The notes: a model not told the origin generated them from the sequence alone. A stretch of DNA of 64,000 bases from Dehalococcoidia bacterium (GCA_965203165.1 OZ241849.1:1281267-1345266), one strand, 5' to 3'. Counted from the first letter of the stretch, positions 792 to 51,615 are shown. Translations and numbers: made by a program.

Positions 792-1550
792 GCGGGGCTT
801 GGTGCGGGGGAGCTGGGCGCGGGGCTTGGTGCTGGTCACGGCGAGATACCCGCGGCAAGCGCGGGTATGACGGATCTCTTTCGCGCGGGTGTAACGGAGG
901 TGGGTGCGCGGGTGTGGCGGGATGGCGGGCGCGGGGGAGTTGGGCGCGGGGCTTGGTGCGCAGCGCGGCGAGATACCCGCGGCAAGCGCGGGTATGACGG
1001 ATCTCTTTCGCGCGGGTGTGACGGGGGTGGGTGCGCGGGTGGGGCGTGGGGGAGTTGGGCGCGGGGCTTGGTGCTGGGCGCGGCGAGATACCCGCGGCAA
1101 GCGCGGGTATGACGAATCTAGCTCGCGCGGGGGTGGCGGGGGTGGGCGTGCGGGTGTGGCGGGGCTTGGGGCGCGGGGAGCTGGGCGCGGGGCTTGGTGC
1201 TGGGCGCGGCGAGATACCCGCGGCAAGCGCGGGTATGACGAATCTAGCTCGCGCGGGGGTGGCGGGGGTGGGCGTGCGGGTGTGGCGGGGCTTGGGGCGC
1301 GGGGAGCTGGGCGCGGGGCTTGGTGCTCGACGCGGCGAGATACCCGCGGCAAGCGCGGGTATGACGGATCTGGGGCGCGGGTGTGGCGGTCTGGCTCGCG
1401 CGGGTGTGACGGTCTGGCTCGCGCGGGTGTGACGGAGGTGGGTGCGGGGGGGTGACGGCCCAGCTCGCGCGGGGGTGGCGGTCTAGCTCGCGCGGGGGTG
1501 GCGGAGGTGGTTTGTGCGGGGGTGGGGGAGGTGGTGGGTGGGGCGGGTAG
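792..1550. repeat. Repeat cluster A: about 6 tandem units of roughly 120 bp, each carrying the palindromic core GGCGAGATACCCGCGGCAAGCGCGGGTATGAC
   Basis: The core recurs with a 120-bp period at about 848, 968, 1088, 1208 and 1334. Inter-core segments are mutually similar (GGGGCTTGGTGC flank), so these are not unique spacers. Confidence 0.85.
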
Positions 1551-1559
1551 CATCTGCTT

Positions 1560-2834
1560 ATGAGCATGCACGCGCCGCAGGAGGCTGGGCCGCTGCCGCC
1601 TGCGGCTGGTGGGGCGCTGCCGCCTGGGGCGCTGCCGCCTGCGCCTGGTGGAGCGCTGCCGCCGGAGGCTGGTACTCCGCTGCGGTATCGGCGGGGGGTT
1701 CGCGACTTTGTTGTTCAGGCGATCTATGTGGGGGTCACCGCGCTGGTGATCGCCTATGTCGTGCTGCAGCTGGGGGGGCGGGAGTACGGCTTCGGCTTCC
1801 TTAATCAGCCGGCGGCCTTTGATGTCGGCAACCAGTGGCTGACCAGCATTGACGGCACGACCAACTCGCGCTTCACGATGTACCTCGTGGGCGTCTGGTC
1901 GACGATTCGCGTGGTTGTGCTGGCGATCGCGCTTTCGACGGTGCTGGGGATTCTGATCGGCGTGGCGCGGCTCTCCTCCAACTGGCTCGTCTCGCGGTTG
2001 GCGATGCTGTTCGTGGAGACTTTCCGCAACGCGCCGCTGTTCGTGCAGATTGTGCTCTGGTACGCGGTCGTGCTGTTCGGGCTGCCGACGATTCAGAACG
2101 TGATCAACATCGGCGATTTCGCCTACCTCTCGAACCGGGGGATCGCGATTCCCTGGCCTGTGCCCGACGGCGGCTGGTGGGGCGGGCCGGACTGGCTGGT
2201 GGGCGTCTGGGTGGCGGCGCTGATCCTGGCGGGCGCGGCGGCCTGGCGGCTGCGCCGCGGGCGGCAGATTTTGGAGCGCGAGACGGGCGAGATTCGGCAC
2301 CCCAACCGCTGGGCGCTGGGGCTGTTCGCCGGGCTGGCGCTGCTCAGCTTTCTGCTGCTGGGCGGGCCGGTCGCGATCGACCGCCCGATCGTCGAGGGCA
2401 CCAGCTACGCCGAGGGGATGGGCATTTTCCCGGAGTTCGCCGCGCTGCTGCTGGGCCTGACGATCTACACCGCCGCGTTCGTCGCGGAGATCGTGCGCGG
2501 CAGCATTCAGGCGCTGCCGCGCGGGCAGAGCGAAGCGGCCAGCGCGATCGGGCTCAACGCCTACCAGCGGCTGACGCTGGTCGTCCTGCCGCAGGCGCTG
2601 CGGCAGATGATCCCCTCGATGACCAATCAGTACCTCAACGTGAGCAAGAATTCGAGCCTCGCTTCGGGCGTCTCCTATTTCGACCTGTTCTTCGTGGCCA
2701 ACATCATTCAGAACAAGATCGGCCACGCGGTCGAGGTCTTTCTGCTGATTATCGTGACCTACATGCTGATGTCGCTGTTGATCTCGGTGGTGATGAACTA
2801 CATCAACCGCCGGGTGACGCTGCACACGGTCTAG
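1560..2834 (+). CDS. Polar/general amino-acid ABC transporter permease (AapQ/BztB-like)
   Basis: Multi-TM protein with the conserved ABC permease EAA-region ...SIQALPRGQSEAASAIGLN.... The N-terminus is proline-rich low complexity. Followed by a second permease and an ATPase. Confidence 0.8.
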   Translation: MSMHAPQEAGPLPPAAGGALPPGALPPAPGGALPPEAGTPLRYRRGVRDFVVQAIYVGVTALVIAYVVLQLGGREYGFGFLNQPAAFDVGNQWLTSIDGTTNSRFTMYLVGVWSTIRVVVLAIALSTVLGILIGVARLSSNWLVSRLAMLFVETFRNAPLFVQIVLWYAVVLFGLPTIQNVINIGDFAYLSNRGIAIPWPVPDGGWWGGPDWLVGVWVAALILAGAAAWRLRRGRQILERETGEIRHPNRWALGLFAGLALLSFLLLGGPVAIDRPIVEGTSYAEGMGIFPEFAALLLGLTIYTAAFVAEIVRGSIQALPRGQSEAASAIGLNAYQRLTLVVLPQALRQMIPSMTNQYLNVSKNSSLASGVSYFDLFFVANIIQNKIGHAVEVFLLIIVTYMLMSLLISVVMNYINRRVTLHTV

Positions 2835-2847
2835 AGGGGAGCGCGCG

Positions 2848-4119
2848 ATGGCCGAGCAGCCGCCGATTCCGCCCGCGCCCGACGCGCCGCCGGTCGGCGT
2901 CCATGCGCCGCGCAAGATCGTGCTGCCGCCGCACCGCGCGCGGGCGCACCGCCCGCTCTCGGAGCGCGCGCGCGAATGGGCGCGGCGCAACCTGTTCGCC
3001 TCGCCCGGGCAGATTGTGATGACGCTGCTCAGCCTGGCGCTGGTCGGCCTGATCGTCGCCGGGCTGGTCTGGTTCGTCTTTTTCGAGGCCAACTGGCGGG
3101 TGATCACCGTCAACCGCTGGCTGCTCTTCGCGGGGGGCTTCCCGCAGGAGGAGTCGTGGCGCTTGTGGCTGAGCGTGGCGGTGGTGTTCCCGCTGATCGG
3201 CGGCGCGTACGGGATGTGGGCCAGCCTGGGGCGGCGCGACCTGCTCTTCATCGCGCTCTCGGCCGCCTTCCTGTTCTTCCTGATGGCGCACGGCGGGGCG
3301 GGGCCCACTTCGTCGATCTGGTTCACCGCCTCGCTGACGCTCTTCTTCCTGGGCTACCTCGTCTGCCGCCGGATTCCGCGCGAGACGGGTCCGCGCCGCG
3401 ATCTGGCGGTGCGCTCGCTGTCGGCGCTGATTGTGCTGGCGCTGCCGATCGTGCTGGCCGTGCTGATGGCCGGCGGCGGGGCTCGCGCGAGCGAGTTCGG
3501 CGGCTTCATGCTCAACCTGATCCTCGCCCCGGTCGGCATTGTCGGGGGGCTGCTGCTGGCGGTGCCGCTGGCGCTAGGGCGGGCCTCCTCGCTGCGCGCG
3601 ATTTCCTGGACCTGCACCGCCTACATCGAGGTGATTCGCGGCGCGCCGCTGATCGGCTGGCTGTTCGTCGCGCTGTTCATCCTCGAAGACATCGTCTCGG
3701 GGCCGCTGATCGTGCGTACGATGATCGTGCTGGCCGTCTTCACCGCGGCCTACGTGGCGGAGTACATCCGCGGCGGGTTGCAGGCGCTGCCCAAGGGGCA
3801 GGCCGAGGCGGCGCAGGCGGTAGGACTGAGCCGCTGGCGCACGCTGCAGACGGTCGTGCTGCCGCAGGCGCTGCGGGTCTCGATTCCGCCGATCGTCGGG
3901 CAGGCGATCGGGCTGTGGAAGGACACGGCGCTGATTTCGATCATCCTGCCGCTGCGCGAGTTGGTGGGCAACTCGCGCGCGGCGATCGCCCAGTCGGAGT
4001 TCATTCCGGACCGGATCGAGGTCTACGCCTTCGCCGCGATCATGTTCTGGATCGTCGCGTTCATGATGTCGCGCATCTCGCAGCGTCTGGAGCGCTCGCT
4101 CGGCCTGGGCGAGCGTTAG
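2848..4119 (+). CDS. Amino-acid ABC transporter permease (AapM/BztC-like)
   Basis: Multi-TM protein; EAA motif ...GGLQALPKGQAEAAQAVGLS...; adjacent to the first permease. Confidence 0.8.
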   Translation: MAEQPPIPPAPDAPPVGVHAPRKIVLPPHRARAHRPLSERAREWARRNLFASPGQIVMTLLSLALVGLIVAGLVWFVFFEANWRVITVNRWLLFAGGFPQEESWRLWLSVAVVFPLIGGAYGMWASLGRRDLLFIALSAAFLFFLMAHGGAGPTSSIWFTASLTLFFLGYLVCRRIPRETGPRRDLAVRSLSALIVLALPIVLAVLMAGGGARASEFGGFMLNLILAPVGIVGGLLLAVPLALGRASSLRAISWTCTAYIEVIRGAPLIGWLFVALFILEDIVSGPLIVRTMIVLAVFTAAYVAEYIRGGLQALPKGQAEAAQAVGLSRWRTLQTVVLPQALRVSIPPIVGQAIGLWKDTALISIILPLRELVGNSRAAIAQSEFIPDRIEVYAFAAIMFWIVAFMMSRISQRLERSLGLGER

Positions 4120-4133
4120 GGCCAACGGCGGCG

Positions 4134-4358
4134 CTAGACGGCGGCGGGCAGGGAAACCGCAACGACGCTGGTCGTGGTGGTTGCCTCGGGGATCGGATCC
4201 CCGTCTTCCACGATGCCCTCGAGGTGAAACTTGATTGCGCTGCGGATCTCAGCTTCGGTCTCTTCGCGGGTCGATCCGGTGGCGATGCAGCCTGGCAAGT
4301 CAGGCACGTAGGCCGAGTAGTTGTTGGCGGCCTTCTCGATCACGACGACGTACTGCAC
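4134..4358 (-). CDS. hicB: HicB-family antitoxin (UPF0150), orphan
   Basis: YVVVIEKAANNYSAYVPDLPGCIATGSTREETEAEIRSAIKFHLEG matches the HicB/UPF0150 signature (YxVxIE...VPDLPGC...EEA). GTG start with a GGAGGTGA ribosome-binding site. No HicA gene is adjacent. Confidence 0.7.
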   Translation of the reverse strand: MQYVVVIEKAANNYSAYVPDLPGCIATGSTREETEAEIRSAIKFHLEGIVEDGDPIPEATTTTSVVAVSLPAAV

Positions 4359-4463
4359 GACTCACCTCCGCTCGCGCAAACCTGCTCGCCGCTGCGGGCA
4401 TCGTCTCCGAGCTTCGGTGGATGCTAGCATCGGCGGTAACCGAACATCGTTTGGAGCAGCCGA

Positions 4464-5306
<843 letters not shown>

Positions 5307-5322
5307 CGGCCGGGAGCGAGCA

Positions 5323-6051
5323 ATGCCGAGCATTCCCGCCGAGCTGGGCGATGTCCGCGCGCTGACCTTTGATGTCTTCGGCACGGTGGTCGACTGGCGC
5401 TCGTCGGTGATCGGCGAGCTGGAGTCGTTCGGCGCGCGGCACGGCCTGGAGGCCGACTGGGGCGTGTTCGCCGATCGCTGGCGGCGCGAGGGCTACGCGG
5501 GCGGGATGCGGCTGGTGCGCGACGGCGAACTGCCTTTTCAGACCGCCGACTCGCTGCACCGGCGAATGCTCGACATCCTGCTCACCGAGCTGGGCGCGGA
5601 GGTCGACGAGGATGAGGTCGCCGATCTCAACCGCGTCTGGCATCGGCTCGCGCCGTGGCCCGACTCGGCGGCGGGGCTGGCGCGGCTGCGCGCCGGCCAC
5701 ACCATCTCGACGCTCTCCAACGGCAACGTCGAGCTGTTGGTCAACATGGCCAAATTCGGCGGGCTGCCCTGGGACTGCATCCTCTCGGCCGAAATCACCG
5801 GCGCGTTCAAGCCTGAGGCGCGCTGCTACGAGCGGGCCGCCGAGCTGCTCGGCTGCGAGCCGCCGCAGGTGATGATGGTGGCCGCCCACCAGGGCGACCT
5901 GCTGGCCGCCGCGCAAACAGGGATGCGCACCGCCTTCGTCCCGCGCCCCAACGAAGCCGGTCCCAACCACCCGGCCGACCTGACCCCCGACCCATCCTTC
6001 AACATCGTCGCTTCCGACTTCCACGACCTCGCCCGCCAGCTCGGCCTCTGA
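5323..6051 (+). CDS. HAD-superfamily hydrolase, haloacid dehalogenase type II-like
   Basis: N-terminal motif FDVFGTVVDW (HAD motif I, typical of L-2-haloacid dehalogenase family). Confidence 0.7.
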   Translation: MPSIPAELGDVRALTFDVFGTVVDWRSSVIGELESFGARHGLEADWGVFADRWRREGYAGGMRLVRDGELPFQTADSLHRRMLDILLTELGAEVDEDEVADLNRVWHRLAPWPDSAAGLARLRAGHTISTLSNGNVELLVNMAKFGGLPWDCILSAEITGAFKPEARCYERAAELLGCEPPQVMMVAAHQGDLLAAAQTGMRTAFVPRPNEAGPNHPADLTPDPSFNIVASDFHDLARQLGL

Positions 6052-6111
6052 CTCGGCGCGCACGCGATATCTTCCCTGCAACGAGGCAGCGAGCGAGCGA
6101 GGAGTGCGACA

Positions 6112-6906
6112 GTGCTGGACGCGCAGAGCTACACGACGATCGAGATTGAAAAGCGCGGCGACGGGGTGGTGATCGCCAGGCTGAACCGCCCCGAGAAGCT
6201 CAACGCGGTCAACGCCGCGATGCACCGCGAGCTGGCTGCCCTGCCGCTTGACGCCAACCGCGACCCGGATGTGCGCGTGCTGGTGCTGACCGGCGCGGGG
6301 CGGGCGTTCTGCGCCGGCGGCGATTTCAGCGCGGATCGCGATGAGCCGATGGGCGGGAGCTACCTCAACTCGCTCAACGAGGCTCGCCTGATCGTGGATA
6401 ACTGGCTGGACCTGGAGAAGCCCGCGATTGCCGCGGTCAACGGCTACGCGCTGGGGCTGGGCGCGACGGTCGCGCTGCTCTCGGATGTGGTCTACGCCGG
6501 CAAGAGCGGCGTGCTCGGCGACACGCACGTGAACATGGGGATCGGGGCGGGCGACGGCGGCGGGGTGCTTTGGCCGATGCTGATCGGCCCTTCCCGCGCC
6601 AAGTACTACCTGATGACCGGCGAGCACATCAGCGCCGAAGCGGCGGCGGCGATGGGGCTGATCCACGCGGCAGTCGAGGATGACGAGCTGATGCCCACTG
6701 CGCTCGGTCTGGCGGAGCGTCTGGCCAACGGGCCGATCCGGGCGATCTCCGCTTCCAAGGTGCCGGTCAACAAGTGGGTCAAGTTCGTCTCGAATCTCGT
6801 GCTGCCCGTCTCCCTGGCGATGGAGGGGATCACGATGAGCGGCGGCGAGGCGTCCGAAGCCCAGGCCGCCTTCCGCGAAAAGCGCCAGCCGCGCTTCCGC
6901 GCCTAG
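6112..6906 (+). CDS. Enoyl-CoA hydratase/isomerase (crotonase family)
   Basis: LNRPEKLNAVN...VLTGAGRAFCAGGDF crotonase signature. Confidence 0.8.
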   Translation: MLDAQSYTTIEIEKRGDGVVIARLNRPEKLNAVNAAMHRELAALPLDANRDPDVRVLVLTGAGRAFCAGGDFSADRDEPMGGSYLNSLNEARLIVDNWLDLEKPAIAAVNGYALGLGATVALLSDVVYAGKSGVLGDTHVNMGIGAGDGGGVLWPMLIGPSRAKYYLMTGEHISAEAAAAMGLIHAAVEDDELMPTALGLAERLANGPIRAISASKVPVNKWVKFVSNLVLPVSLAMEGITMSGGEASEAQAAFREKRQPRFRA

Positions 6907-6968
6907 GCGCTCCCGATATGAGTGCCTGTACCCTGCCGTCTAGCGGGCGCGGGGGATAGGCTCGCGCT

Positions 6969-8531
6969 ATGGGATGGCATCGCCTGCTCTGGATCTTCGC
7001 GTGTCTGGCCTGCGCCGCGATCGCGGCCGCAGCCTGCGTTGACGACGCTGACGACGCGCGCGCCGCGTCGGCGCAGACTGAGCAACAGGCGGAACCGCGG
7101 GCCCGCCAGCAGGCGCAGTCCGAACCGGAAGAGCCAAGCGCCGCCGCGCCGCAGCAGCAGGCCGGCGAGCAGCAGCAGGACGCAGGCGAGGCGCAGTCGG
7201 ATCAGCAGCAGGAGCGGAGCGCTCGCCCGGCAATGCAGGCGCAGCAAAACGGGCAGGCCTACGCGCCGCAGCAGCAGGACGCATACGCGAGCGACGCGGC
7301 CGGTCCGCCCGCGGTCGCCGCGCCGCCGCGCGAAGTGATCACCGACGGATTCCCGCTGACGCCCAGCGCGCCCGCGGCGGGCGACGAATACGGCTGGTCG
7401 GCCGTTGTGGACGGCGACATCATCGCAGTCGGCGCGCCCTACCACGACGCTGTAGCCGAGGATGCCGGCGCGGTTTTCATCTTCGAGCGGAGCGGCGATG
7501 AGTGGGTTGAGACGGCGAAGCTGCTGCCGCCGTTCGGCGAGAAAGACGGGTGGTTCGGGCGCTGGTTGGCGCTCGACGACGGGCGGCTGCTGGTCGGCGC
7601 TCCCTACGAGGATCTCTGGCAAGCGTCAGGCGGCGATTGGGTCGTCGATGTGGGCGCGGCCTACATCTACGAGAAGGTGGACGGGGAGTGGGTGCGCACG
7701 GCGACGTTGCTGCCCGAAACGCTCGCGCCCGGCCTCTCGTTCGGTTGGTCGGTCGCGATCCACGGCGATCGCCTCGCCGTGTCGGCTTGGGCGGAGACAG
7801 TCGGCGAAGAGCTGGCGGGCGCCGTTTACGTCTACCAGGAGGCGAAGGGGCTGTGGCGTCTCGAAGAGCGCATTACCCCGCCCGAGCCGCAGGCCATTCA
7901 CCAGTTCGGGCGCGATATCGAGCTGGAGCAGAACGTGCTGGTCGTCGGCGCGCCGGGCCACGACGGGGATGAGCGCGAAGACATCGGGGCGGTGTTCGTC
8001 TACCACCGGTACGACCACACCTGGAACTTCACCGGCACGTTCATCGCGCCCGACGGCGGCGAGGGCGATGCGCTCGGCTCGCAGGTCACGCTGGCGCTGC
8101 CCTGGTTTGCGGCGGGCGCGCACAGCCATGACGGCGAGGAGTTGGAGGCGGGGGCGGTTTATGTCTGGCGGCTGGGCGATTACTGGGCGCTGCACAGCCG
8201 CTTGACTGCGTCGGATGTGGTGCTCGGCGACTGGTTCGGCTATGCGCCGGCGGTGGAAGGGGAGCGGCTGGTGATCGGCTCGCCGCACCGAGCGGATCCC
8301 GACACCGGCCTCTACCGCACCGGCGCGGCCTACATCTTCGAGCTGGAGGGCGACCAGTGGGTGGAGCGCGGCGTGGTGGGCCCGGTCGATCCCGTCCTGC
8401 ATGGCGAACAGGCGGAGTTCGGCTGGGTCACCGATGTGGACGGCGGCACCATCGTGGTAGGCGCCTGGCTGGCCGACACGGACGCCGGCGAGAACGCCGG
8501 GGCCGCGGCGGTTTATGTCGTTGACCCGTAG
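6969..8531 (+). CDS. FG-GAP repeat lipoprotein
   Basis: Signal/lipobox FACLACAAIAAAAC. A Q/A/E-rich low-complexity linker follows, then repeated ...FGWSVA..GD.L.VGAP... FG-GAP-like repeats. Confidence 0.55.
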   Translation: MGWHRLLWIFACLACAAIAAAACVDDADDARAASAQTEQQAEPRARQQAQSEPEEPSAAAPQQQAGEQQQDAGEAQSDQQQERSARPAMQAQQNGQAYAPQQQDAYASDAAGPPAVAAPPREVITDGFPLTPSAPAAGDEYGWSAVVDGDIIAVGAPYHDAVAEDAGAVFIFERSGDEWVETAKLLPPFGEKDGWFGRWLALDDGRLLVGAPYEDLWQASGGDWVVDVGAAYIYEKVDGEWVRTATLLPETLAPGLSFGWSVAIHGDRLAVSAWAETVGEELAGAVYVYQEAKGLWRLEERITPPEPQAIHQFGRDIELEQNVLVVGAPGHDGDEREDIGAVFVYHRYDHTWNFTGTFIAPDGGEGDALGSQVTLALPWFAAGAHSHDGEELEAGAVYVWRLGDYWALHSRLTASDVVLGDWFGYAPAVEGERLVIGSPHRADPDTGLYRTGAAYIFELEGDQWVERGVVGPVDPVLHGEQAEFGWVTDVDGGTIVVGAWLADTDAGENAGAAAVYVVDP

Positions 8532-8589
8532 GGGGCATTGCGCTCAGCCGCCCTGAGCCTCTCTCACCGCACAATCGCCGCGGACGCGC

Positions 8590-9625
8590 CTGCTGGGGTA
8601 TGGGGGGAGGAAGCGTGAGCGTGCGGGGTTTGGGCGGCGGCAAGCGGGCTTGGCGCTCATCACGGCGAGATACCCGCGGCGAGCGCGGGTATGACGGACC
8701 TATTTTTGCGCGGGTATGGCGGGCCTAACTCTGCGTGGGTATGGCGGAGTGGGTGCGCGGGTGGCCGGAGGAAGCGTGAGCGTGCGGGGTTTGGGCGGCG
8801 GCAAACGGGCTTGGCGCCCATCACGGCGAGATACCCGCGGCAAGCGCGGGTATGACGGACCTAATTTTGCGCGGGTATGGCGGGAGAGGGGCGCGCGGGT
8901 GCGGGGTTTGGGCGGCGGCAAGCGGGCTTGGCGCCCATCACGGCGAGATACCCGCGGCGAGCGCGGGTATGACCCTATTTTTGCGCGGGTATGACGGGCC
9001 GGACTCTGCGCGGGTATGGCGGGAGAGGGGCGCGCGGGTGGCTGGAGGAAGCGTGCGCGTGCGGGGTTTGGGCGGCGGCAAGCGGGCTTGGTGCTCATCA
9101 CGGCGAGATACCCGCGGCGAGCGCGGGTATGACGGACCTCTTTTGCGCGGGTATGGCGGACCTGACTCTGCGCGGGTATGACGGGCCTGATTCTGCGCGG
9201 GTATGGCGGACCTAACTCTGCGCGGGTATGGCGGGAGAGGGGCGCGCGGGGGCTGGAGGAAGTGTGCGCGTGCGGGGTTTGGGCGGCGGCAAGCGGGCTT
9301 GGCGCTCATCACGGCGAGATACCCGCGGCGAGCGCGGGTATGACGGACCTAATTTTGCGCGGGTATGACGGACCTAATTTTGCGCGGGTATGACGGACCT
9401 AATTTTGCGCGGGTATGACGGACCTAATTTTGCGCGGGTATGGCGGGCCTGATTCTGCGTGGGTATGGCGGACCTGACTCTGCGTGGGTATGGCGGGCCT
9501 AACTCTGCGCGGGTATGGCGGGCCTGATTCTGCGTGGGTATGGCGGGCCTGACTCTGCGCGGGTGTGGCGGGCCTGACTCTGCGCAGGTGTGGCGGAGGT
9601 TGCGGTGTGGGGGCGGGGGGCTTAG
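8590..9625. repeat. Repeat cluster B: 5 core palindromes plus nested 25-27 bp iterated half-sites
   Basis: Cores at about 8668, 8836, 8951, 9109 and 9313. GGGTATGACGGACCTAATTTTGCGC x4 at 9340-9440, then about 27-bp GGGTATGGCGGGCCTGAYTCTGCGY units to about 9600. Confidence 0.85.
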
Positions 9626-11170: not shown

Positions 11171-11745
11171 GTGTGGCGGAGGTGGTTGAGCGGGGGGGGG
11201 TGTAGGCGGGGCTTGGTGCGCACCGCGGCGAGATACCCGCGGCGAGCGCGGGTATGACGGATCTTTTTGCGCGGGTGTGACGGAGGTGGTTGGGCGCGGG
11301 GGGTGGGGCGGAGGGCGCGCGGGGGGGGGTGTGGGCGGGGCTTGGTGCGCACCGCGGCGAGATACCCGCGGCAAGCGCGGGTATGACGGATCTACTCGCG
11401 CGGGTGTAGCGGAGGTGGTTGGGCGCGGGGGTGTGACGGAGGGCGCGGGGGTGTGGGGGGGTGTGGGCGGGGCTTGGTGCGCACCGCGGCGAGATACCCG
11501 CGGCAAGCGCGGGTATGACGGATCTACTCGCGCGGGTGTGGCGGAGGTGGTTGGGCGCGGGGGGTGGGGGTGTGGGCGGGGCTTGGTGCGCACCGCGGCG
11601 AGATACCCGCGGCAAGCGCGGGTATGACGGATCTACTCGCGCGGGTATGACGGATCTTTGGGCGCGGGTATGGCGGAGGTGGGGCGCGGGGGTGGCGGGT
11701 CTGTTTCGCGCGGGGGTGGCGGAGGTGGTTGGGCGCAGGGCGTAG
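11171..11745. repeat. Repeat cluster C: 4 units of about 110-130 bp with the same core
   Basis: GGGGCTTGGTGCGCACCGCGGCGAGATACCCGCGGCRAGCGCGGGTATGACGGATCT at about 11227, 11353, 11484 and 11595. Confidence 0.85.
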
Positions 11746-14644: not shown

Positions 14645-15574
14645 TCATGTACGCCGCCCTCTCCGTCGAGCGCGGGTGGTTGCGCGGCGGCGACCTTCGA
14701 GCAGCTGTCGCTGTAGCTCGCGCTGTGGCGCGGCGTTGTCCAAGACCAGGATTGGGCTCGTCAGATCGACGCCGAGATCGACTGCGAGATCGGCCGCTAC
14801 GTCGTGCAGAATCTCGACGCCGATGCTCTGCCGACCCATACGCTGAGCTACGCGGAGCGTTGTCCCGGAGCCTACGAACGGATCGAGTACGACATCACCC
14901 TCGTCGGTGAACAGCTTGATGAACCACTCCGGCAGCCATTCGGGATACGCCGCTGAGTGACCGGTGTTGTGCGCAACCGGCGATCCGTAGAGGACATTGT
15001 TCGGCAGAACGGTGTCTTTGTCAGTCCAATACGCGATCTTCCGTCCGACGCCGCTGCCGGTGGCGCTGTTGTGGCGTGTGAGGTCTGCGTCGCCCAGCTT
15101 CTTCAGCCGAGCCTCCGTCCAGTCGCCGATTGGCACTCGCACCGCGTCCTGGTTCATTTTGAAGTTGCGCTCTTTGGTGAAATGCAGGCAGCGCTCCCAA
15201 GCGTCGCGGAACCGGTTTCGCCAGTAGCCGGGCGCGCTGGTCGTCTTGTGCCAAACGTACTCCTCGACCCACCTGAATTCGCACTCGCTGCGCAGCGCTT
15301 GGATCAGCTCGAGCACGTAGGTGTGGCGCTCTCCGTCTACGCACTTTTCTTTGATGTTGAGTACGAACGAGCCTGTCGGCGCGAGGACGCGGTAAAACTC
15401 GTGCGCCCGCGGAATGAACCACTCGACGTAGTCGTCCGGCCGAATGCCGCCGTAGGTTCGCTTGCGGGCGTCCGCGTAGGGTGGCGACGTGACGATCAGG
15501 TCGACGCTGTCGCTCGGAACGTTGGTGAGCGCGTCAAGGCAGTCGCCCGCGAATAGCGTGATCGAGTCCGGCAT
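14645..15574 (-). CDS. DNA methyltransferase, beta-class N4-cytosine or N6-adenine
   Basis: Motif IV DLIVTSPPY precedes motif I DPFVGSGTT (IV...I order, beta group). Sits in a lower-GC segment adjacent to a putative endonuclease. Confidence 0.8.
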   Translation of the reverse strand: MPDSITLFAGDCLDALTNVPSDSVDLIVTSPPYADARKRTYGGIRPDDYVEWFIPRAHEFYRVLAPTGSFVLNIKEKCVDGERHTYVLELIQALRSECEFRWVEEYVWHKTTSAPGYWRNRFRDAWERCLHFTKERNFKMNQDAVRVPIGDWTEARLKKLGDADLTRHNSATGSGVGRKIAYWTDKDTVLPNNVLYGSPVAHNTGHSAAYPEWLPEWFIKLFTDEGDVVLDPFVGSGTTLRVAQRMGRQSIGVEILHDVAADLAVDLGVDLTSPILVLDNAAPQRELQRQLLEGRRRATTRARRRGRRT

Positions 15575-15585
15575 CGCGATCCTGC

Positions 15586-16410
15586 CTATCGCCCCAGATG
15601 CACTTGCTGAAAGAGATCGCGGCAGAACTGCACTGCTTCGGTGTCGACTTTGTCGGACATGTCCGGCGACAGGTGGTCTTGCATTCGATTTGCGAGCTGC
15701 GCAAAGACCAGATCGAGGGCGTCGTCCACACCGGAAGCGATGGCGTAGAACGTTCGCCCGTCAACGCGCTCGATCCTCTCGCCGACAGCGGCGGGCTGCT
15801 GTCCTGGGCGGCGCGGCAAGATCGTGACCAGATAGCCACGGCCGCTCGACCCCCATCGTTTGGCGCGCAAGAACTGAGAGATGTTGTCGAGCACCTGCTT
15901 CGTGGTGTCGGCATTCATCGTGTTGTGCTTGTTCTTGACCTCCGCCGCGATCCGGGCGTCGTCGTTGAACAGATCGACGAGGCCGTCCTGCTCGGTCCAG
16001 CCCGGCATCGCACCGAGCACGTTCTGGTGAAAGCCGCCGATTGCACTCGCGATTGCCTGCGCCAGCGACCTTGAGCCGTCCAGACGATTGAGATCGTCCA
16101 CACCGCCGCCAAGAACGCAAGCCTGCGCGAGCAGCGCGAAGGGGTCGCGCACATTCTTCTCAAGTCGGGCGGGGATCTCGCGGTCGGCCTCGCCAATTCG
16201 GGAGATCAGCGTTCGGATGGCTGCGTCAAAGTCGGCGTCGCTGATGAACGGGAGCTGTCCGCTTCCACCTGGATCTCGCGGGGGGGGGGGGGGGGGGATA
16301 CGACGAGCGGACGAGCTCACGGCGGACTCCTCGATCGGGCCGCGTACCATACACAGCGGGCCGCCAGGGGCCAAGGCCCGACGGCGGGCCGGGAGAGAAC
16401 GCAGCCGCAC
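15586..16410 (-). CDS. Putative type II restriction endonuclease (PD-(D/E)xK-like); N-terminus contains an 18-nt poly-C/G tract
   Basis: DLFNDDARIAAEVKNKHNTMN fits D...(D/E)xK. Co-oriented directly upstream of the methyltransferase. Family assignment (possibly Eco47II-like) is uncertain. Confidence 0.45.
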   Translation of the reverse strand: MRLRSLPARRRALAPGGPLCMVRGPIEESAVSSSARRIPPPPPPRDPGGSGQLPFISDADFDAAIRTLISRIGEADREIPARLEKNVRDPFALLAQACVLGGGVDDLNRLDGSRSLAQAIASAIGGFHQNVLGAMPGWTEQDGLVDLFNDDARIAAEVKNKHNTMNADTTKQVLDNISQFLRAKRWGSSGRGYLVTILPRRPGQQPAAVGERIERVDGRTFYAIASGVDDALDLVFAQLANRMQDHLSPDMSDKVDTEAVQFCRDLFQQVHLGR

Positions 16411-17234: not shown

Positions 17235-17860
17235 TTGGCGCCCTCGCGCACGCCCCAGATCCGTCATACCCGCGCTCGCCGCGGGTATCTCGCCGTGTTC
17301 GGCACTAGGCCATGTTCTCGCCCCCTTTCCGTCATTCCCTGCGCAGGCAGGGTTGAGAGGCGAGGACGGGACTTGGGTGCAGCGCAGCGAGATACCCGCG
17401 GCGAGCGCGGGTATGACGGAAGGGGCGCGGGTATGACAGAAGGGGGCGTAAGGGAATGACGGGCTTTGCGCGGGCTGCGGGCGTGTGTGTTTTCCGCTCT
17501 CTTCCTCCCTTCGGAGCGTTAGGGGGTGCGAGAGGGCTTTGCGCTGTGCTCGGCGAGATACCCGCGGCGAGCGCGGGTATGACGGAGGAGGCGGCGCGGG
17601 TATGACGGAAGAGGGGGGGCAGGTATGACGATATGGGCCGCAGGGGAATGACGGGGCTTTGCGCGGAGCTGCGGGCGTGTGTGTTTTCCGCTCTCTTCCT
17701 CCCTTCGGAGCGTTAGGGGCGCGAGAGGGCTTTGTGCTGTGCTCGGCGAGATACCCGCGGCGAGCGCGGGTATGACGGATCTTTTTGCGCGGGTATGACG
17801 GAAGAGGGGGCGCGGGTATGACGGAGGAGGGGCGCGGGTATGATGGACCTCGTGTGAACA
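17235..17860. repeat. Repeat cluster D: one inverted core then three forward cores with about 180-bp period
   Basis: Inverted core GTCATACCCGCGCTCGCCGCGGGTATCTCGCC at about 17262; forward cores at about 17390, 17565 and 17747. A conserved TGTGTGTTTTCCGCTCTCTTCCTCCCTTCGGAGCGTTAGGGG appears twice between cores. Confidence 0.85.
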
Positions 17861-34891: not shown

Positions 34892-35601
34892 TGGCGTCTC
34901 CGCCAGAAACGAGCCAGCCCCGCCGCACCGGTTCTTTACGCCGGCCGGCAGGGCTGCCCATCCGCTCAGCTGCTGAGTGCCCGAGTGCTCTAGGTACGCG
35001 CCACTTACGTTCTCCGGCATCTCGTCGCGTGGCTGGCGCCTGGAGGAGTTCGTCCTTGCCAGACAGGTTGTGCCCCTGCGATGTCCACCGAAACGCGTCG
35101 ATCGGTTCCCCTAGCTCGAGCTCCTCTCCGGGTTTCTCCCGGAAGACTGAGCCTCTTCATCCTAGCACACACTCTGATCCGTGTGTCAAGCTCCAGTCGC
35201 AAGACGCGCCAAAGCCCCTTCAGGGCTCAAGTCTGCTGGACCGATCTCTCGCAAACGGACCACGGCGCGGCGGCGGTGAGGCGCAGTTCGCTGCGTTGGG
35301 CTTGCTGCTGCCGGAGGTCCGTTGGGGCGGCGCTGCGGCAGAGGGCGATGTCGCTGAGCAAGTCGGCGCGTTGGGCGGTGACGGTGGCGCGGGTGGTGCG
35401 TTGGGGGATGGGGCGGATGCCGGCGCCGCGTTGGCGGGGCAGGAGGGTGAACGTACCCATATTCTGATTAGGTGCCGGGCGGCGGGGTTTGTCAAGTGGA
35501 TGAGGATGTGGAGGCGGGCGCGGGGCGCTGTGCTGGGCGCGACGGGGGTTTCGGCACCGGGTGTGCTGGGATTGTTTGGGTCGGGGCAGTGAGGTTTTGG
35601 G

Positions 35602-35790
35602 GCGCGATGGGGTTGGGCGCGGGCTGTGCGAGCGGCGCGATGGAGTTGGGCGCGGGCTGTGCGAGCGGCGCGACGGAGTTGGCGCGGGCCGTGCCAAGGG
35701 CGCGACGGCGCGCGCGGGCCGTGCTAAGGGCACGGTGGAGTTGGGCGCGGGTTTGTGCCAGGGGCGCGCGACGGCGACGGGCCTCGGCTA
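35602..35790. repeat. Degenerate 33-bp tandem repeat (about 5 copies) in the 3' region of glnK
   Basis: GCGCGATGGRGTTGGGCGCGGGCTGTGCGAGCG appears twice as perfect copies, then diverged copies. Confidence 0.5.
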
Positions 35791-42275: not shown

Positions 42276-42335
42276 CCTCACTGCTGCGGCGCACTCCCAA
42301 CCCGCGCCGCGCGACATCACGCGGAGGGAGCCCCG

Positions 42336-42590: not shown

Positions 42591-42597
42591 GACCGCC

Positions 42598-42975: not shown

Positions 42976-42987
42976 GGCCGCCTGCGC

Positions 42988-43311: not shown

Positions 43312-43324
43312 GGAAACTGCTCAG

Positions 43325-43600: not shown

Positions 43601-43604
43601 GCGG

Positions 43605-44986: not shown

Positions 44987-45001
44987 CAGCAGCGCCTCTC
45001 G

Positions 45002-46834: not shown

Positions 46835-47130
46835 ATCGCTTCCTCCTGCCCCGGGCCGTAGGCCCGCGAAATTTCGCCGCTCAATGCGGCCGGGATCGCG
46901 CAGCGCAGCGCGCGGGCCAGCGGGCGCAGGTCGGCGGCCAGCGCTGCGGCGCAGGCGCCGCCCCGATGTACATACGCGCCGCGCCCCTCCGCCGCGCCCA
47001 AGCGCAGCTCGCCGGCCGGCGTCCGCGCCATGCGCCCCAGCGCCGCCTTGGGCGCCGCTCGGCGGCAGACCACGCAGCGGCGCAGGGGCGCATCGGACAG
47101 GCGGCTGCTGGGCGGGGCGACTGCGGCCAC
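46831..47130 (-). CDS. ylxR: YlxR/RnpM-family protein (DUF448)
   Basis: RRCVVCRRAAPKAALGRMARTPAGELRLG...GRGAYVHRGGACAA. Conserved nusA-ylxR-infB order; its stop overlaps the infB start. Confidence 0.7.
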   Translation of the reverse strand: MAAVAPPSSRLSDAPLRRCVVCRRAAPKAALGRMARTPAGELRLGAAEGRGAYVHRGGACAAALAADLRPLARALRCAIPAALSGEISRAYGPGQEEAI

Positions 47131-47201
47131 GGCTGCTCCTTCCTCGATCGGCGCGCGCCTGCCGAGGAAGGTCCGCGGGCGCCGCGCCGATCAGCGCACG
47201 G

Positions 47202-48641
47202 TTAGAACTCGTCCTCGTAATCGGCGTACTGCGCGTAGGGGTCTTCGTCTTCGTCGATCTCCTCGACGGTTTCGATGTAGCGCGGGCGGCGGCGCGGGCG
47301 GCGCTGCTGATCTTCCTGCTCGCGCTGCAGCACTTCCTCCCCGAAACGAATTTGGCCCGGCTGAGAGGCGGCCGGCTGCAGTTCCGTCGCGGCCAGGGCC
47401 GGCTCCGGTTCCGGCTCTTCCTCGACCAGTGCGGCCGGCTGGTAGGACGGCGGCGCGGCCGGCTCGTCCACCGCCGGCGTCGGTTCGGGCGGCTCGGCCG
47501 CCGGCAACGCAATCGGCGGGGGCGGCGCCATCGGCTCCGGCACGATCACCAATTCCTCCTGCGGCGCAAACGCGCCGCGCCCTTCGTCGCTGAGACGCTC
47601 CGCCACCGTCTGCGGTTTGATGTCGATCCGGTGGCCTGTCAGCCGCGCCGCCAGCCGCACATTCTGCCCGTCCCGCCCGATCGCCAGGCTCAACTGCTGA
47701 TCGGGCACGGCCACCTCGGCCGTGTTCGTGCCGCGCACGAATCGCACCGCCAGCGTGTGCGCCGGGCTCAGCGCGTGCTCGACATAGAGCCGCGGGTCGT
47801 GATCCCACTGCACCACATCGATTCGCTCGCCGTTCAACTCGTTGACCACGTTCTGGATCCGAATTGCGCGCATCCCCACGCAGGCGCCGATCGCATCAAC
47901 CCCCTCCTGGCGCGAGTAGACGGCGATTTTCGTGCGGTAGCCGGGTTCGCGCGCGAGGCCGCGAATTTCGATCGTGCCGCGTCCGATCTCCGGCACTTCC
48001 ATCTCGAACAGCCGCCGCACAAACTCCGGGCGCCGCCGCGAAATCACGATCTGCGGTCCCTTGTTGGCCTGCAGCACCTCGATCATCAGCGCACGGATTC
48101 GCTGCCCGCTGCGGTAGTGCTCCATCCGCACCTGCTCATCGCTCGGCAGCACCGCCTCCGCGCGGCCAAGATCCACAATCACCTGGTGGTTGTCGATCCG
48201 CTGCACCAGGCCCGAGACGATCCCGCCCTCCTGCCCGGAGTACTCCTCGAACACCGCGTCGCGCTCGGCTTCGCGCAGCGCCTGGAGCACCACCTGCTTC
48301 GCCGTCTGCGCCTCGATTCGCCCGCCCACCTCGCCGACCTGATGCTGCTGCCGCAGCATCGAGCCGATCGCCGCGCCCGCGTCGATCGCCTGCGCCCGCT
48401 CCAGGTCGATCTGTAGATCCTCGTCGGCGATGTCCTCCTCGATTTCCACGACCTCCATCTCCGACCAGACATCCATCGCCCCGTCGTAGCGATCGATCCT
48501 GACCGACACCTCGCCCGGCAAGTCGTAGCCGCGCTTCACCGCAGCCGCCATGCCGCGCTCCACGGCGTCGAACACGACGTCCTCATTGAGGGCCTTTTCG
48601 GCCGTCAGCTGCTTGATCGCCAGGAGAAATTCGGTCTTCAT
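47202..48641 (-). CDS. nusA: Transcription termination/antitermination factor NusA with an acidic C-terminal tail
   Basis: [16 protein letters not shown]...; S1 and KH domains. Start re-derived at M16 (cat at 48639-48641). Confidence 0.9.
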
Positions 48642-48797
48642 CGCGCTGCCCATCGCGCTAGCCGCTGGGGAGCGGCCCGTTCGCACACACGCTTCAGTCG
48701 TGATCCGGGGCCGCGCACGCCAGATGCGGTCTCAGCCCCGCTGGACTCTCAGCATACACCCGCAACCGACCTGGAACGCCCGCGTCTCAGTCGCGCA

Positions 48798-50513
48798 TCA
48801 GTCACTCAGGGCGGCGAGCGCAGCCTGCGTTACCGAAGCGGCCTCCGCCAGCGCGATGTTGCGCGGCTCCGCTTCGGCGCGCGCCTTCAGCTCCACCTCG
48901 CCGTCGCGCAGTCCGCGCGGTCCCAGCGTGATGCGCAGCGGGACGCCGATCAGGTCGGCGTCGTTGAATTTCACGCCCGGCCGCTCGTCGCGATCGTCGC
49001 TCAGGCAGGACAGCCCGGCCGCTTCCAGGTCGGCTTCAAGGCGCTCCAGCGCGGCGCCCACATCCTCGCGCTCCGCCCCGATCGCCACAACATGCACATC
49101 GTAGGGCGCGACGGAGGGCGGCCAGACGATGCCCTGCTCGTCATGGTTGGCCTGCACCACCGCGGCCAGCAGCCGCTCGAGGCCGATGCCGTAGCAGCCC
49201 ATCACGGGCAGCACGCGCTCGCCCTCGGCGTTGAGCACGCCCGCGGCCATTGGCTCGGCGTAGACCTCGCCCAGTCGGAAGATGTGACCCAGCTCCACCC
49301 CGCGCTGCATTAGCAGCCGCCCACCGGCGCACGCCGCGCAGGGCGAGCCGGCCTGCGCCAGGCCGATGTCTGCGACTGTTCCTGCGGACCAGCCGCGCCC
49401 GTAATTCAGGTTGCGCAGGTGATAGCCCTCGCGGTTCGCGCCGCCGATCAGGTTGCGGGCTTCGACCACGCTGGGGTCCGCGACGACCCGCGCCGCGTCG
49501 AGCCCGACCGGCGAGGCATAGCCTGCTATCCAGCCGGCGTCGGCGACCTCCTCCGGCGTCAACGCCCGCGCTTCGTCCGCGCCCAGCGCGTTGATCAGCT
49601 TCAGCTCGTTGACCTCCAGGTCGCCGCGAATCACCGCGAAGGTCGGCTCGCCGTCCACCAAGAAGAAGGCAGCCTTCGCGGTGCGTTCCGCCGGCACGCC
49701 GAGGAATTCGGCCAGCGCCTCGATCGTCGTCGTGCCCGGCGTCGCCACATCCTCCATTGGCAGGGCGTCCTCTTCCGACGCTGCGCCGCGGGAGAACTCG
49801 GCCCGCTCCTGGTTCGCCGCGTAGCCGCACGAGTCGCAGAGCGCGATGTTGTCCTCGCCGATTTCGGTGAGGAAGATGAACTCCTCCGACTGCTTGCCGC
49901 CGATCGCGCCTGAATCCGCCTGCACCGCCACGACGGGCACCGCGCAGCGCCGATACACATTGTGGTAGGCCTCCGCCATCGCCGCGTAGGTTTGCTGGAA
50001 CGCCTGCTCGTCGATATCGAACGAGTAGGCGTCCTTCATGATGAACTCGCGCACGCGGATCAGGCCGCCGCGCGGGCGCGGCTCGTCGCGGAACTTGGTC
50101 TGCATCTGGAACACGCGCTGGGGCAGGTCGCGGTAGGACTGCGCCGTCTTGCGGAACAGGTCCGTCACCGCTTCTTCGTGCGTCGGCGCGAGCACCATCG
50201 GCCGCTCGCGGCGGTCGCGCAGTTGGAACAGCACCGGCCCGTAGGAGCGGTCGCGGCCCGTCTCCTGCCAGAGCTCGAGCGGCTGCATCGCGGGCATGCG
50301 GATTTCCTGAGCTCCCGCGGCCTCCATCTCCTCGCGCACGATTTGCTCGATTTTGCGCAGGCTGCGCCAGGCTGCGGGCATGAATGAGTAGACGCCCGCG
50401 GCGAGCTGCACGATCAGTCCGGAGCGCAGCAGCAGTTGGTGGTTGGCGCTGTCCGCGTCGCCCGGGGCTTCGCGCAGGGTGCGCCCGAACATGCCGCTCA
50501 TTCGCGTGGCCAT
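48798..50513 (-). CDS. proS: Proline--tRNA ligase
   Basis: MATRMSGMFGRTLREAP...; class II motifs. The start was re-derived (cat at 50511-50513). The 731-aa track ORF reads into repeat cluster E. Confidence 0.9.
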   Translation of the reverse strand: MATRMSGMFGRTLREAPGDADSANHQLLLRSGLIVQLAAGVYSFMPAAWRSLRKIEQIVREEMEAAGAQEIRMPAMQPLELWQETGRDRSYGPVLFQLRDRRERPMVLAPTHEEAVTDLFRKTAQSYRDLPQRVFQMQTKFRDEPRPRGGLIRVREFIMKDAYSFDIDEQAFQQTYAAMAEAYHNVYRRCAVPVVAVQADSGAIGGKQSEEFIFLTEIGEDNIALCDSCGYAANQERAEFSRGAASEEDALPMEDVATPGTTTIEALAEFLGVPAERTAKAAFFLVDGEPTFAVIRGDLEVNELKLINALGADEARALTPEEVADAGWIAGYASPVGLDAARVVADPSVVEARNLIGGANREGYHLRNLNYGRGWSAGTVADIGLAQAGSPCAACAGGRLLMQRGVELGHIFRLGEVYAEPMAAGVLNAEGERVLPVMGCYGIGLERLLAAVVQANHDEQGIVWPPSVAPYDVHVVAIGAEREDVGAALERLEADLEAAGLSCLSDDRDERPGVKFNDADLIGVPLRITLGPRGLRDGEVELKARAEAEPRNIALAEAASVTQAALAALSD

Positions 50514-50875
50514 CAGTCCCGCTCCTCCTGCGCTTCCTGCGACTGTATCGAGCGCTCCCGCTCCGCGCAGCGCCGCCGCGCCCAGGGGCGAAACAGCCGC
50601 CCCAGCTCGAACGAGTCCCAGACCGCGTAGGCGAGACGGCAGAGGAGCAAGCCTCCGGCCAGCGCCGTGAGCATGCTCACCGCGATCCCCGTTCCGTCGT
50701 CGAGCCCCAGCAGTGGAGTCGCCGCGCCGCCGCCGATCGCGCCCAGCAGCGCGCAGGGCAGCGCGAAGATGGCGCCCACCGCACGGCGCCGCAGGCTGAG
50801 GCCGATCCAGGCCAGTGCGCCCAAGGCTGCCCATGTGAGCAGAAACAGCGTCAAAAAGATCGCGTCGAAGAGCAC
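50513..50875 (-). CDS. Hypothetical small membrane protein upstream of proS
   Basis: Three hydrophobic helices (LFDAIFLTLFLLTWAALGALAWIGL...). GTG start; its stop overlaps the proS ATG. Confidence 0.35.
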   Translation of the reverse strand: MLFDAIFLTLFLLTWAALGALAWIGLSLRRRAVGAIFALPCALLGAIGGGAATPLLGLDDGTGIAVSMLTALAGGLLLCRLAYAVWDSFELGRLFRPWARRRCAERERSIQSQEAQEERD

Positions 50876-50889
50876 CCTGCCAGCCTATG

Positions 50890-51615
50890 CCCGGCGCAAC
50901 CCCGCCATACCCGCGCCGCAACTCCGTCATACCCGCGTTTGCCGCGGGTATCTCGCCGCGGTGAGCACCAAGCACCGTTCCCGCCTCCCACACCCCCGCT
51001 CACCGTGCCCGCCCAAGCGGCGTCCGAGCGCCGCCGGACGTTTGGGGGCGGGGTGTTGCGCTGCGCGTGGGTCTGCGCAGGATCGATCGAGTGGGAGGCG
51101 TGGAGGCGAGCGCGGGGTTCCGTGCAGAACTCGGCGAGATACCCGCGGCAAGCGCGGGTATGACGGATCTTTTCGCGCGGGTGTGGCGGACCTTTTCGCG
51201 GGTGTGGCGGACCTTTTCGCGCGGGTGTGACGGAGCTTTTCGCGCGGGTGTGGCGGACCTTTTCGTGCGGGTGTGACGGACCTTTTCGCGGGTGTGACGG
51301 ACCTTTTCGTGGGTGTGGCGGACCTTTTCGCGCGGGTATGACGGACCTTTTCGCGCGGGCGTGACGGACCTTTTCGTGGGTATGACGGACCTTTTCGCGC
51401 GGGTGTGGCGGACCTTTTCGCGCGGGTGTGGCGGACCTTTTCGCGCGGAGCGGCGGGGCTCTTGTGCGCGGGGGTGGCGAATGAGGCGGTTGGAGGCCAG
51501 GGACGGTGCTTGGTGCCCAGCGCGGCGAGATACCCGCGGCAAGCGCGGGTATGACGGATCTTTTTCGCGCGGGTATGACGGACCTCATTTTGCGCGGGGG
51601 TGGCGGGTTTGTTGT
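50890..51615. repeat. Repeat cluster E: one inverted core, two forward cores, and about 15 iterations of a 23-25 bp half-site unit
   Basis: Inverted core at about 50925; forward cores at about 51133 and 51525. GGACCTTTTCGCGCGGGTGTGGC-like units span 51170-51440. Confidence 0.85.

Follow-up and report, generated by a model that had tools for sequence, protein, structure and literature searches.

What are the palindromic repeats that fill five intergenic regions in a stretch of Dehalococcoidia DNA, and which protein reads them? The stretch comprises 64,000 nucleotides from a Dehalococcoidia bacterium (GCA_965203165.1 OZ241849.1:1281267-1345266) and is called the window hereafter. An earlier note had likened the family to repetitive extragenic palindromes (REPs) and bacterial interspersed mosaic elements (BIMEs), possibly a substrate for a RAYT-type transposase or a structured RNA. 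The likeness holds, as the repeats are members of the CGTC-tagged REP superfamily arranged in mosaic arrays. The analysis indicates that they probably form a family of Ssn-related motifs (SRMs), CGTC-tagged REPs of the NTS/NTSvar type that would be read by Ssn, a small GIY-YIG nuclease. In 2013, the CGTC REPs were an orphan class whose maker or reader enzyme was not known, and the Ssn work of 2025 supplied a candidate reader, mainly in Proteobacteria; the same pairing would now reach uncultured Dehalococcoidia.

An oriented hairpin with an invariant stem

The bare stem pattern ATACCCGCG-N5-CGCGGGTAT matched the window 21 times with 0 mismatches, where 0.00 matches are expected from shuffled sequences, and the 37-nt core matched 20 times when up to 3 mismatches were allowed. 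All 21 copies carry a perfect 9-bp stem and a 5-nt loop, which on the G-rich strand reads GCAAG or GCGAG, with GCAAA as the single exception. Hence, the earlier count of about 21 copies in five named intergenic clusters was reproduced at the same places, and so was the perfect stem with its varying loop, to which one extra loop has to be added. A profile built from the 21 units recovered the same 21 full units in the window and no decayed full copies.

On the C-rich strand, each copy reads CGTC-ATACCCGCG-CTYGC-CGCGGGTAT-C-TCGCC. The tag immediately 5' of the stem is CGTC in 20 of the 21 copies and GGTC in the remaining one, and a C immediately 3' of the stem, followed by the rest of the tail CTCGC, is present in every copy (21/21), the tail being CTCGCC or CTCGCT. 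The conserved unit extends over about 52 nt of the C-rich strand and consists of CCGTC, the hairpin ATACCCGCG-CTYGC-CGCGGGTAT, and C-TCGCC-N7-GCACCAAGCCC; as single-stranded DNA it is CCGTCATACCCGCGCTTGCCGCGGGTATCTCGCC. The stem starts with AT, has 9 bp, and bears a 5-nt loop, as in the CGTC-3/4 families, and the predicted DNA fold of the C-rich strand reaches -12.3 kcal/mol (z = -3.3). Since the stem is invariant, no covariation can be counted.

Read on the G-rich strand, the 5' flank is GGGCTTGGTGC-N7-GGCGAG. The sharing of flanks among clusters proposed earlier is only partial: the 5' flank GGGGCTTGGTGC is literal in clusters 1 and 3, but is represented elsewhere by the variants GGGCTTGGCGC, GGGCTTTGCGC, and GGTGCTTGGTGC, and the 3' flank GGATCT is altered to GGACCT in cluster 2 and to GGAAGG or GGAGGA in cluster 4. 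GTAG is absent from the flanks, which are CGTC and CTCGCC. Nineteen of the 21 copies have the same orientation. The two reversed ones, with stems at 17266 and 50929, each open their own cluster (4 and 5) and form an inverted pair with the next copy; as single-stranded DNA, the stretch 17255-17400, which holds the pair of cluster 4, folds up as a single long hairpin (z = -3.8).

A GIY-YIG gene bracketed by the hairpin

The stem pattern was then scanned across species-representative genomes, which yielded at least 100 listed matches, and about 800 kb around the hairpins was taken for analysis. Nearly all the matches listed lie in metagenome-assembled genomes (MAGs) of Dehalococcoidia/Chloroflexota, amounting to about 20 assemblies among the 80 listed and including long-read chromosomes. 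They share the tag and the tail, and usually also the upstream GGTGC-N7-GGCGAG. Among these matches, the 23-nt palindrome is unchanged across about 20 Chloroflexota species, with gene identities to the window of only about 80%. The core is therefore present well beyond the window and, being found in many independent assemblies, is not an assembly artefact. Judging by the MAG names, the hosts seem to be sponge-associated lineages. In other loci, pairs of hairpins are arranged head to tail in 18 cases, with tags outward in 9, and with tags inward in 1.

Four open reading frames (ORFs) in this DNA match a consensus of small GIY-YIG proteins, used as an approximate query. The partner protein has 96 aa, and its sole domain is Pfam PF01541 (GIY-YIG), which covers residues 5-76 with an E value of about 6e-15; at locus L052, it reads MPRQPCVYILASRPHG...DLYLDLA. 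Its residues Y8, Y19, and E66 have the spacing of Y6, Y17, and E64 in SsnA of Neisseria meningitidis. A search of the protein database with one partner returned a tight Chloroflexota clade of at least 76% identity. Below it lie proteins of 55-67% identity, which include some Chloroflexota paralogues (for example, P0039 from a Dehalococcoidia chromosome) but come mostly from other phyla; proteobacterial 'GIY-YIG nuclease family proteins' show 55-63% identity to the partner. No Neisseria-labelled protein was found among the best 120 database matches, NCBIfam holds no model for the partner, and the nearest solved structures are UPF0213 proteins at an E value of only 1e-6. The domain, the size, the residue spacing, and the gene context together lead us to infer that the partner is an Ssn-type nuclease, and its gene is called ssn below.

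As a rule, copies of its own motif stand on both sides of an ssn gene (PMC11893778). Here, hairpins stand on both sides of ssn, within about 250 bp and with their tags outward, in L042, L086, L101, L102, L103, L116, and L117, and on one side only in L052. The order in L101, L102, L103, L116, and L117 is a tagged hairpin, a leader of about 40 nt, ssn (291 bp), a spacer of about 45-170 nt, and an inverted hairpin, and the start codon lies 35-40 nt from the hairpin in L052, L042, and L086. Positions 821-872 of the window are identical over 52 nt to a unit of L086 that ends 20 nt before the ssn ATG. As the unit of about 52 nt is common to both ends of the cassette and to all copies in the window, the 5' flank in the window is part of the extended terminal repeat of the cassette. 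The modular character that had been claimed for the family is thus retained in the mosaic arrays, but the 5' flank belongs to the conserved cassette-end unit and is not a loose module. The inverted pairs of the window look like ssn cassettes without the gene.

In L102 (4001-4291), L103 (4001-4291), L114 (159-452), L116 (1201-1491), and L117 (1201-1491), ssn adjoins rpsO at one conserved place. This place, seen in several species, has rpsO and a 114-aa ORF on one side and a FeThRed_B-like gene and an M17 peptidase gene on the other, and it is kept even for the paralogue of L114, which has a different type of hairpin. Given this fixed position, ssn behaves as a resident and not as a hopping gene.

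Distant paralogues of the partner are bracketed by other tagged hairpins, and the nuclease and the hairpin type therefore co-vary. In L113, protein P0039 (67% identity) is flanked by ATTCCAGC and ATTCCAGG; in L114, P0034 (63% identity) has ATTCCCGC-GCAG-GCGGGAAT on both sides, with 1 mismatch to the NTS of N. meningitidis on either side of the gene; a divergent paralogue in L021 is flanked by ATTCCTGC; and in L115, P0026 (81% identity) has ATTGCCGCG upstream. These associations suggest at least four cognate nuclease-hairpin pairs within one clade, and such a range of specificities would be of use for mining Ssn enzymes as single-strand DNA tools.

Related hairpins were also noted elsewhere. 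A sister hairpin, ATTGCCGCG-N5/6-CGCGGCAAT, in which tag and tail are unchanged, regularly alternates, in opposite orientation, with the ATACCCGCG type as heterodimers (L052 7760-7990, L102 4400, L103 4398, L115 1419, L086 2230-2300). Double-tagged hairpins (CCGTC-stem-loop-stem-GACGG) occur in L040 (1209), L050 (5484), L069 (4605), L071 (4379), L079 (1555), L099 (25), and L107 (~13995), and look like collapsed inverted dimers. The same 9-bp stem is found with another tail in Alphaproteobacteria, as cgtc-ATACCCGCG-cttgt-CGCGGGTAT-ccacg, in Rhodopseudomonas palustris JSC-3b and R. faecalis (L015, L016, L051, L057) and in two MAGs (L026, L035). The Rhodopseudomonas tail is of the CCA type, typical of CGTC REPs. 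This distribution suggests that one hairpin specificity is common to several phyla, and the stem identical to that of Rhodopseudomonas, together with the near-exact Neisseria NTS, points to old or horizontally shared nuclease-hairpin pairs.

Clusters, half-site rows, and their turnover

The hairpins of the five clusters span 838-1368, 8662-9347, 11225-11631, 17260-17779, and 50923-51558. The summed cluster spans come to about 3.7 kb, or about 5.8% of a window with a G+C content of 64-72%, which agrees with the share of about 6% given before. The ORFs that flank every cluster show coding-like G+C at third codon positions (GC3) and have Pfam support, and none overlaps a cluster. The gene calls on syntenic contigs lead to the same picture, so every copy is intergenic, as had been stated. 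The gene contexts are divergent at clusters 1 and 5, convergent at clusters 2 and 4, and tandem at cluster 3.

Cluster 1 (792-1550, - strand) consists of five head-to-tail units with a half-site array at 1353-1510. Its period by Tandem Repeats Finder is 126 bp, and that of cluster 4 is 193 bp; the periods of 120 and about 180 bp given earlier were close, but had to be adjusted. The extended tagged unit lies on the - strand at 821-872, where it reads CCGTC-ATACCCGCG-CTTGC-CGCGGGTAT-CTCGCC-N7-GCACCAAGCCC, and again at 948-999, 1063-1114, 1189-1240, and 1315-1366. Cluster 2 (8590-9625, - strand) has five units, with stems at 8670, 8831, 8948, 9108, and 9319, and half-site arrays of 25-bp period; its convergent neighbours are an FG-GAP gene that ends at 8531 and an enoyl-CoA hydratase gene that ends at 9622. 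Cluster 3 (11171-11745, - strand) has four units, with stems at 11233, 11362, 11494, and 11603, and a half-site array at 11616-11722, and is bordered by direct repeats GTGGCGGAGGTGGTTG. Cluster 4 (17235-17860, both strands) opens with the reversed unit 17261-17312 (tag on the + strand), which forms an inverted pair with 17368-17418; further units at 17533-17584 and 17726-17777 follow at the 193-bp period, and half-sites continue to 17847. In cluster 5 (50890-51615, both strands), the first unit, 50924-50976, is reversed (tag on the + strand) and pairs with 51114-51166; next come a half-site array at 51152-51448 and the unit 51506-51557.

The inverted pair of cluster 4 encloses a tagged hairpin of a second type that has decayed (17330-17354, + strand) and reads CGTC-ATTCCCTGC-GCAG-GCAGGGtt, and further remnants of this second family are found at 17452-17463 and at about 17643-17656, with GGGAATGACGG half-sites. 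Intact hairpins of the second family, of the ATTCCTGC type, flank the divergent ssn paralogue of L021 and are present in L108.

Several other features of the window were recorded. Genes with RCC1 repeats adjoin clusters 1 and 5 (1-750, - strand; ~51700-53984, + strand), and on its other side cluster 1 faces an ABC permease gene (+ strand) with its ATG at 1560. A 111-bp tandem repeat (51927-52341) encodes RCC1_2 repeats and lies outside the hairpin family. A run of 14 C at 670-683, either just within or upstream of the beginning of the RCC1-repeat gene on the - strand, may reflect a tract prone to slippage or an assembly error in a homopolymer. Moreover, a G-rich intergenic tandem array at 35599-35783 (33-bp period, about 5 copies of GCGCGACGGAGTTGGGCGCGGG-like units, with small CCGTGC...GCACGG hairpins) is perhaps related, in decayed form, to the repeat superfamily of the clusters.

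Rows of half-sites recur after the hairpins. The half-site, GCGGGT[AG]TG[AG]CGG on the G-rich strand, corresponds to the 3' arm plus the next five bases and returns with a period of 21-25 bp. The window contains 71 half-sites on the + strand and 3 on the - strand; 21 of them are part of full hairpins, which leaves about 50 beyond these, and only one, at 590, falls outside the clusters. The longest array of cluster 2 (9332-9597, - strand) has 10.6 copies at 25 bp, and on its tagged strand the repeat is CCGTCATACCCGCGC plus a 10-nt linker, i.e., the tag and the proximal arm only. The longest row overall, in cluster 5 (51152-51448, - strand), has 13.3 copies with a period of 21-23 bp. In the rows that follow the stems at 9319, 11603, 17751, and 51530, the half-sites closest to the hairpin are perfect, and A-to-G changes appear in those farther away. 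The half-sites stand on the tag side only, both in the window family and around the ssn genes of L114 and L052, and since these two genes are bordered by half-site rows of their own, such rows appear to be general in the group. They are not described in Di Nocera 2013 (PMC3733652) or Chenal 2025 (PMC11893778).

The arrays were also compared with syntenic contigs of strains 95-97% identical to the window. In the independently assembled strain L108, the repeats occupy the same places except for cluster 3, which is missing, with one decayed half-site in its place; recombination between units, by which a cluster is lost or gained, would fit this difference. In L107, all that is present of cluster 4 is one double-tagged hairpin, CCGTC-ATgCCCGCG-gcgag-CGtGGGTAT-GACGG, as would be expected if the identical arms of the inverted pair had recombined. 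L107 alone carries a complete 177-bp unit (5' module, hairpin, and five half-sites) directly after the stop codon of a carboxylesterase gene; no target duplication is seen, three sister strains lack the unit at the same site, and no donor copy above about 85% identity was found in the collected DNA.

Other genes also differ between the strains. The window has a restriction-modification pair at 14645-16410 (- strand; an N4/N6 DNA methylase and an Eco47II-type endonuclease) of lower G+C content (0.64), which in L108 (11345-12701, syntenic) is replaced by a HaeIII-type endonuclease and a D12-class methylase; at the left junction of this swap, a tagged hairpin stands beside a second-type hairpin. 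Some strains carry small genes that resemble toxin-antitoxin genes (HicB-like; DUF433 with a PIN domain), which the window lacks at the corresponding places (L108 1171-1395; L107 17832-18943; L109 4401-5081 and 9076-10196; L110 6677-7809), and these intergenic sites are generally variable.

A candidate reader, its rivals, and known systems

In N. meningitidis, the 94-aa GIY-YIG protein SsnA binds and cuts its motif exclusively as single-stranded DNA and exclusively in the tagged strand, with the cut falling a few nucleotides upstream of the tag; the C that follows the palindrome is the key base for binding, and cutting is governed by the 3 nt that precede the palindrome (PMC11893778). SsnA also cuts a hairpin built from two half-oligonucleotides and leaves RNA untouched (PMC11893778). 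Its motifs are NTS, CGTCATTCCCGCGMAVGCGGGAATCYRG, and NTSvar, CGTCATACTCGGG-N5-CCCGAGTATC (PMC11893778). The CGTC REPs, in turn, were defined by an unpaired CGTC at one end, a stem of 8-9 bp that starts with AT, a loop of 4-5 nt, and a short tail; they were found mainly in Alphaproteobacteria, and no RAYT association was reported (PMC3733652).

By analogy with Neisseria and Wolbachia, the 9-bp hairpin would fold when the C-rich strand becomes single stranded during replication, repair, or the entry of DNA. An Ssn of about 96 aa, encoded elsewhere in the genome, might then bind the hairpin and the following C, as its Neisseria counterpart does, and nick a few nucleotides 5' of the CGTC tag. The arrays of the window could be gene-less derivatives of ssn cassette ends that lengthen on the tag side through nick-associated repair and slippage, which would explain why rows of 'tag + proximal arm' sit exactly there, and that shrink by recombination between arms or units. 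The cellular effect may lie in strand-specific single-strand break sites that modulate how flanking DNA recombines or is taken up, as in Neisseria.

We also consider, tentatively and at rather long odds, that the half-site rows are footprints of a transposase-free multiplication of the repeats by Ssn nicking and repair synthesis or slippage. Nicking next to the hairpin would add 'tag + arm' units singly and copy whole units of 120-190 bp in tandem, and the half-sites could serve as extra cut sites when paired with a single distal arm. If so, Ssn and its motif would amplify themselves as a pair and remodel intergenic DNA. In any case, the half-site rows and the changes between strains give testable hints on how repeats multiply and decay.

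Several observations weigh against Ssn as the reader. A tblastn search of the 64-kb window for the ssn gene returned noise only, and the longest half-site row (after 51139) lacks a clear decay gradient. Natural competence, which Ssn modulates in Neisseria, is not known for these organisms. Moreover, the head-to-tail layout dominates here, although it was described as negligible for CGTC REPs (PMC3733652), and the published SRM pattern, HGTCWYN(0-2)YYVSBRHN(0-5)WNVSBRGN(0-2)RNCYNB, matches 0 of the 21 window copies. It fails at the W, one position of the loop, as the window loop ends in C, and it does match a copy in L021 (loop CTTGA) and the hairpins of L113 and L114. The pattern is a hand-made search aid and not a definition, and it under-counts such hairpins.

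The family could instead be a set of classical REPs or BIMEs made and moved by a RAYT (an IS200/IS605-type Y1 transposase) encoded elsewhere. Short GC-rich intergenic palindromes in mosaic clusters, inverted pairs that fold like REPINs (z = -3.8), and a copy content that varies between strains would all suit it, but the tag is CGTC and not the RAYT-cleaved GTAG, and CGTC REPs were reported not to be flanked by RAYT genes (PMC3733652). A phmmer search with an approximate Escherichia coli RAYT query, a weak probe, gave 0 matches among the 4,724 ORFs in 800 kb around the hairpins. In addition, no transposase family recurs by Pfam among 148 coding-like ORFs within 500 bp of hairpins at 100 loci, in a tally that shows only families with at least 2 members and in which a lone transposase could be hidden. 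The gene that the hairpins do bracket encodes the 96-aa GIY-YIG nuclease, and the RAYT partner suggested earlier is accordingly very unlikely. Slightly less probable still are remnants of a conventional transposon or insertion sequence, i.e., miniature inverted-repeat transposable elements (MITEs), non-autonomous, spread by recombination, and with the hairpin as their terminal inverted repeat. The 177-bp composite unit of L107 that three sister strains lack, and inverted pairs that resemble an emptied cassette, are what such elements would leave; yet the L107 insertion shows no target-site duplication, no transposase family recurs beside the hairpins, and the sole cargo found between the ends is the 96-aa nuclease, fixed beside rpsO in several species.

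Two further explanations place the function outside single-stranded DNA. In one, the repeats are transcribed as a structured RNA (small RNA, mRNA stabilizer, or terminator) that acts through its hairpin. On both strands the hairpin is stable, a short T run (GACGGATCTTTTT) comes after some of the copies, and Di Nocera and colleagues hold that many REPs are transcribed and act as RNA. The T run, however, begins 9 nt past the stem; a terminator scan found none at the hairpins, and predicted promoter and terminator sites never coincide with the hairpins, their counts being equal to those of shuffles. Rfam gave 0 matches at the gathering threshold over the whole window, a tRNA scan of the window found nothing, and with no covariation countable the structured-RNA family proposed earlier was not borne out. 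The clusters occur alike in divergent, convergent, and tandem contexts, with 19 of 21 copies in one orientation regardless, and a conserved unpaired tag and tail and unfoldable half-site rows make no sense for an RNA hairpin; SsnA of N. meningitidis, moreover, leaves RNA alone (PMC11893778). An RNA function is, for these reasons, highly improbable. Somewhat less remote, and still unlikely, are iteron-like arrays for a nucleoid or regulatory protein that binds duplex DNA and reads CGCGGGTATGACGG, with Ssn as a mere neighbour. About 70 half-sites in one orientation, spaced by 21-25 bp (about two helical turns), and a palindrome that could seat a dimer speak for it, and duplex-binding iterons are possible for the regular half-site rows. 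However, no gene for a DNA-binding protein is associated with the hairpins, and the hairpin type co-varies with the ssn paralogue in at least four types, which points to Ssn as the reader; the distal half-sites decay freely, and are thus not under selection, and whole clusters are dispensable in sister strains.

Some simpler candidates were discarded. A CRISPR-like array was ruled out because the 'spacers' are themselves repeated modules, and coding repeats were ruled out by a wrong GC3 and by the absence of clusters in sister strains. Viral contigs contain no exact match to the tagged hairpin, hence there is no sign of phage carriage or of a phage origin.

Among known systems, NTS/NTSvar and SRM-Ssn (PMC11893778) are the ones from which the preferred reading, a CGTC-tagged motif read by Ssn, takes its model. 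They share an oriented hairpin whose stem is immediately preceded by CGTC and followed by C, hundreds of clustering intergenic copies, a bracketed GIY-YIG gene of about 95 aa, and paralogues with their own hairpins; NTSvar, in particular, has a 9-bp stem starting with ATAC, a 5-nt loop, and ...GTAT-C. In contrast, the stem here is ATACCCGCG and the tail is longer (CTCGCC-N7-GCACCAAGCCC), the units are arranged in head-to-tail tandems with half-site rows on the tag side, and the hosts are Chloroflexota, a phylum (Chloroflexi) unmentioned in the text of that paper.

The resemblance to REP/BIME and REPIN-RAYT systems of E. coli and Pseudomonas is one of organization: a tagged palindrome that, by analogy, is recognized in single-stranded DNA by the small nuclease whose resident gene it brackets, mosaic clusters, and inverted pairs that form long hairpins. 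The enzymes and tags differ, CGTC replacing GTAG and GIY-YIG replacing HUH/Y1, with no Y1 family found near any copy. The Neisseria intergenic mosaic elements (NIMEs; RS units bounded by dRS3) are likewise mosaics between genes, composed of a short tagged palindrome in alternation with internal modules specific to each cluster, and lie near variable genes. Unlike the present family, dRS3 has a stem of 8 bp and a loop of 4 nt, no half-site rows are described for NIMEs in the literature compared, and dRS3 is also a phage integration target, whereas the tagged hairpin here has no match in viral contigs. The CGTC-3/4 families (PMC3733652) agree with the window repeats in a tag outside the stem, a 9-bp stem with AT at positions 1-2, a 5-nt loop, a short unpaired tail, and the lack of an associated RAYT, and the same stem with a CCA tail occurs in Rhodopseudomonas, a genus named in that work. 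However, those REPs were found in five phyla, Chloroflexi not among them, mostly as head-to-head dimers with head-to-tail arrangements negligible and groups rare (PMC3733652), and their tail is CCA where the present one is CTCGCC. Overall, three features look new: the occurrence of the family in Chloroflexota, the head-to-tail arrangement of the units, and the half-site rows on the tag side; the conserved unit is also longer.

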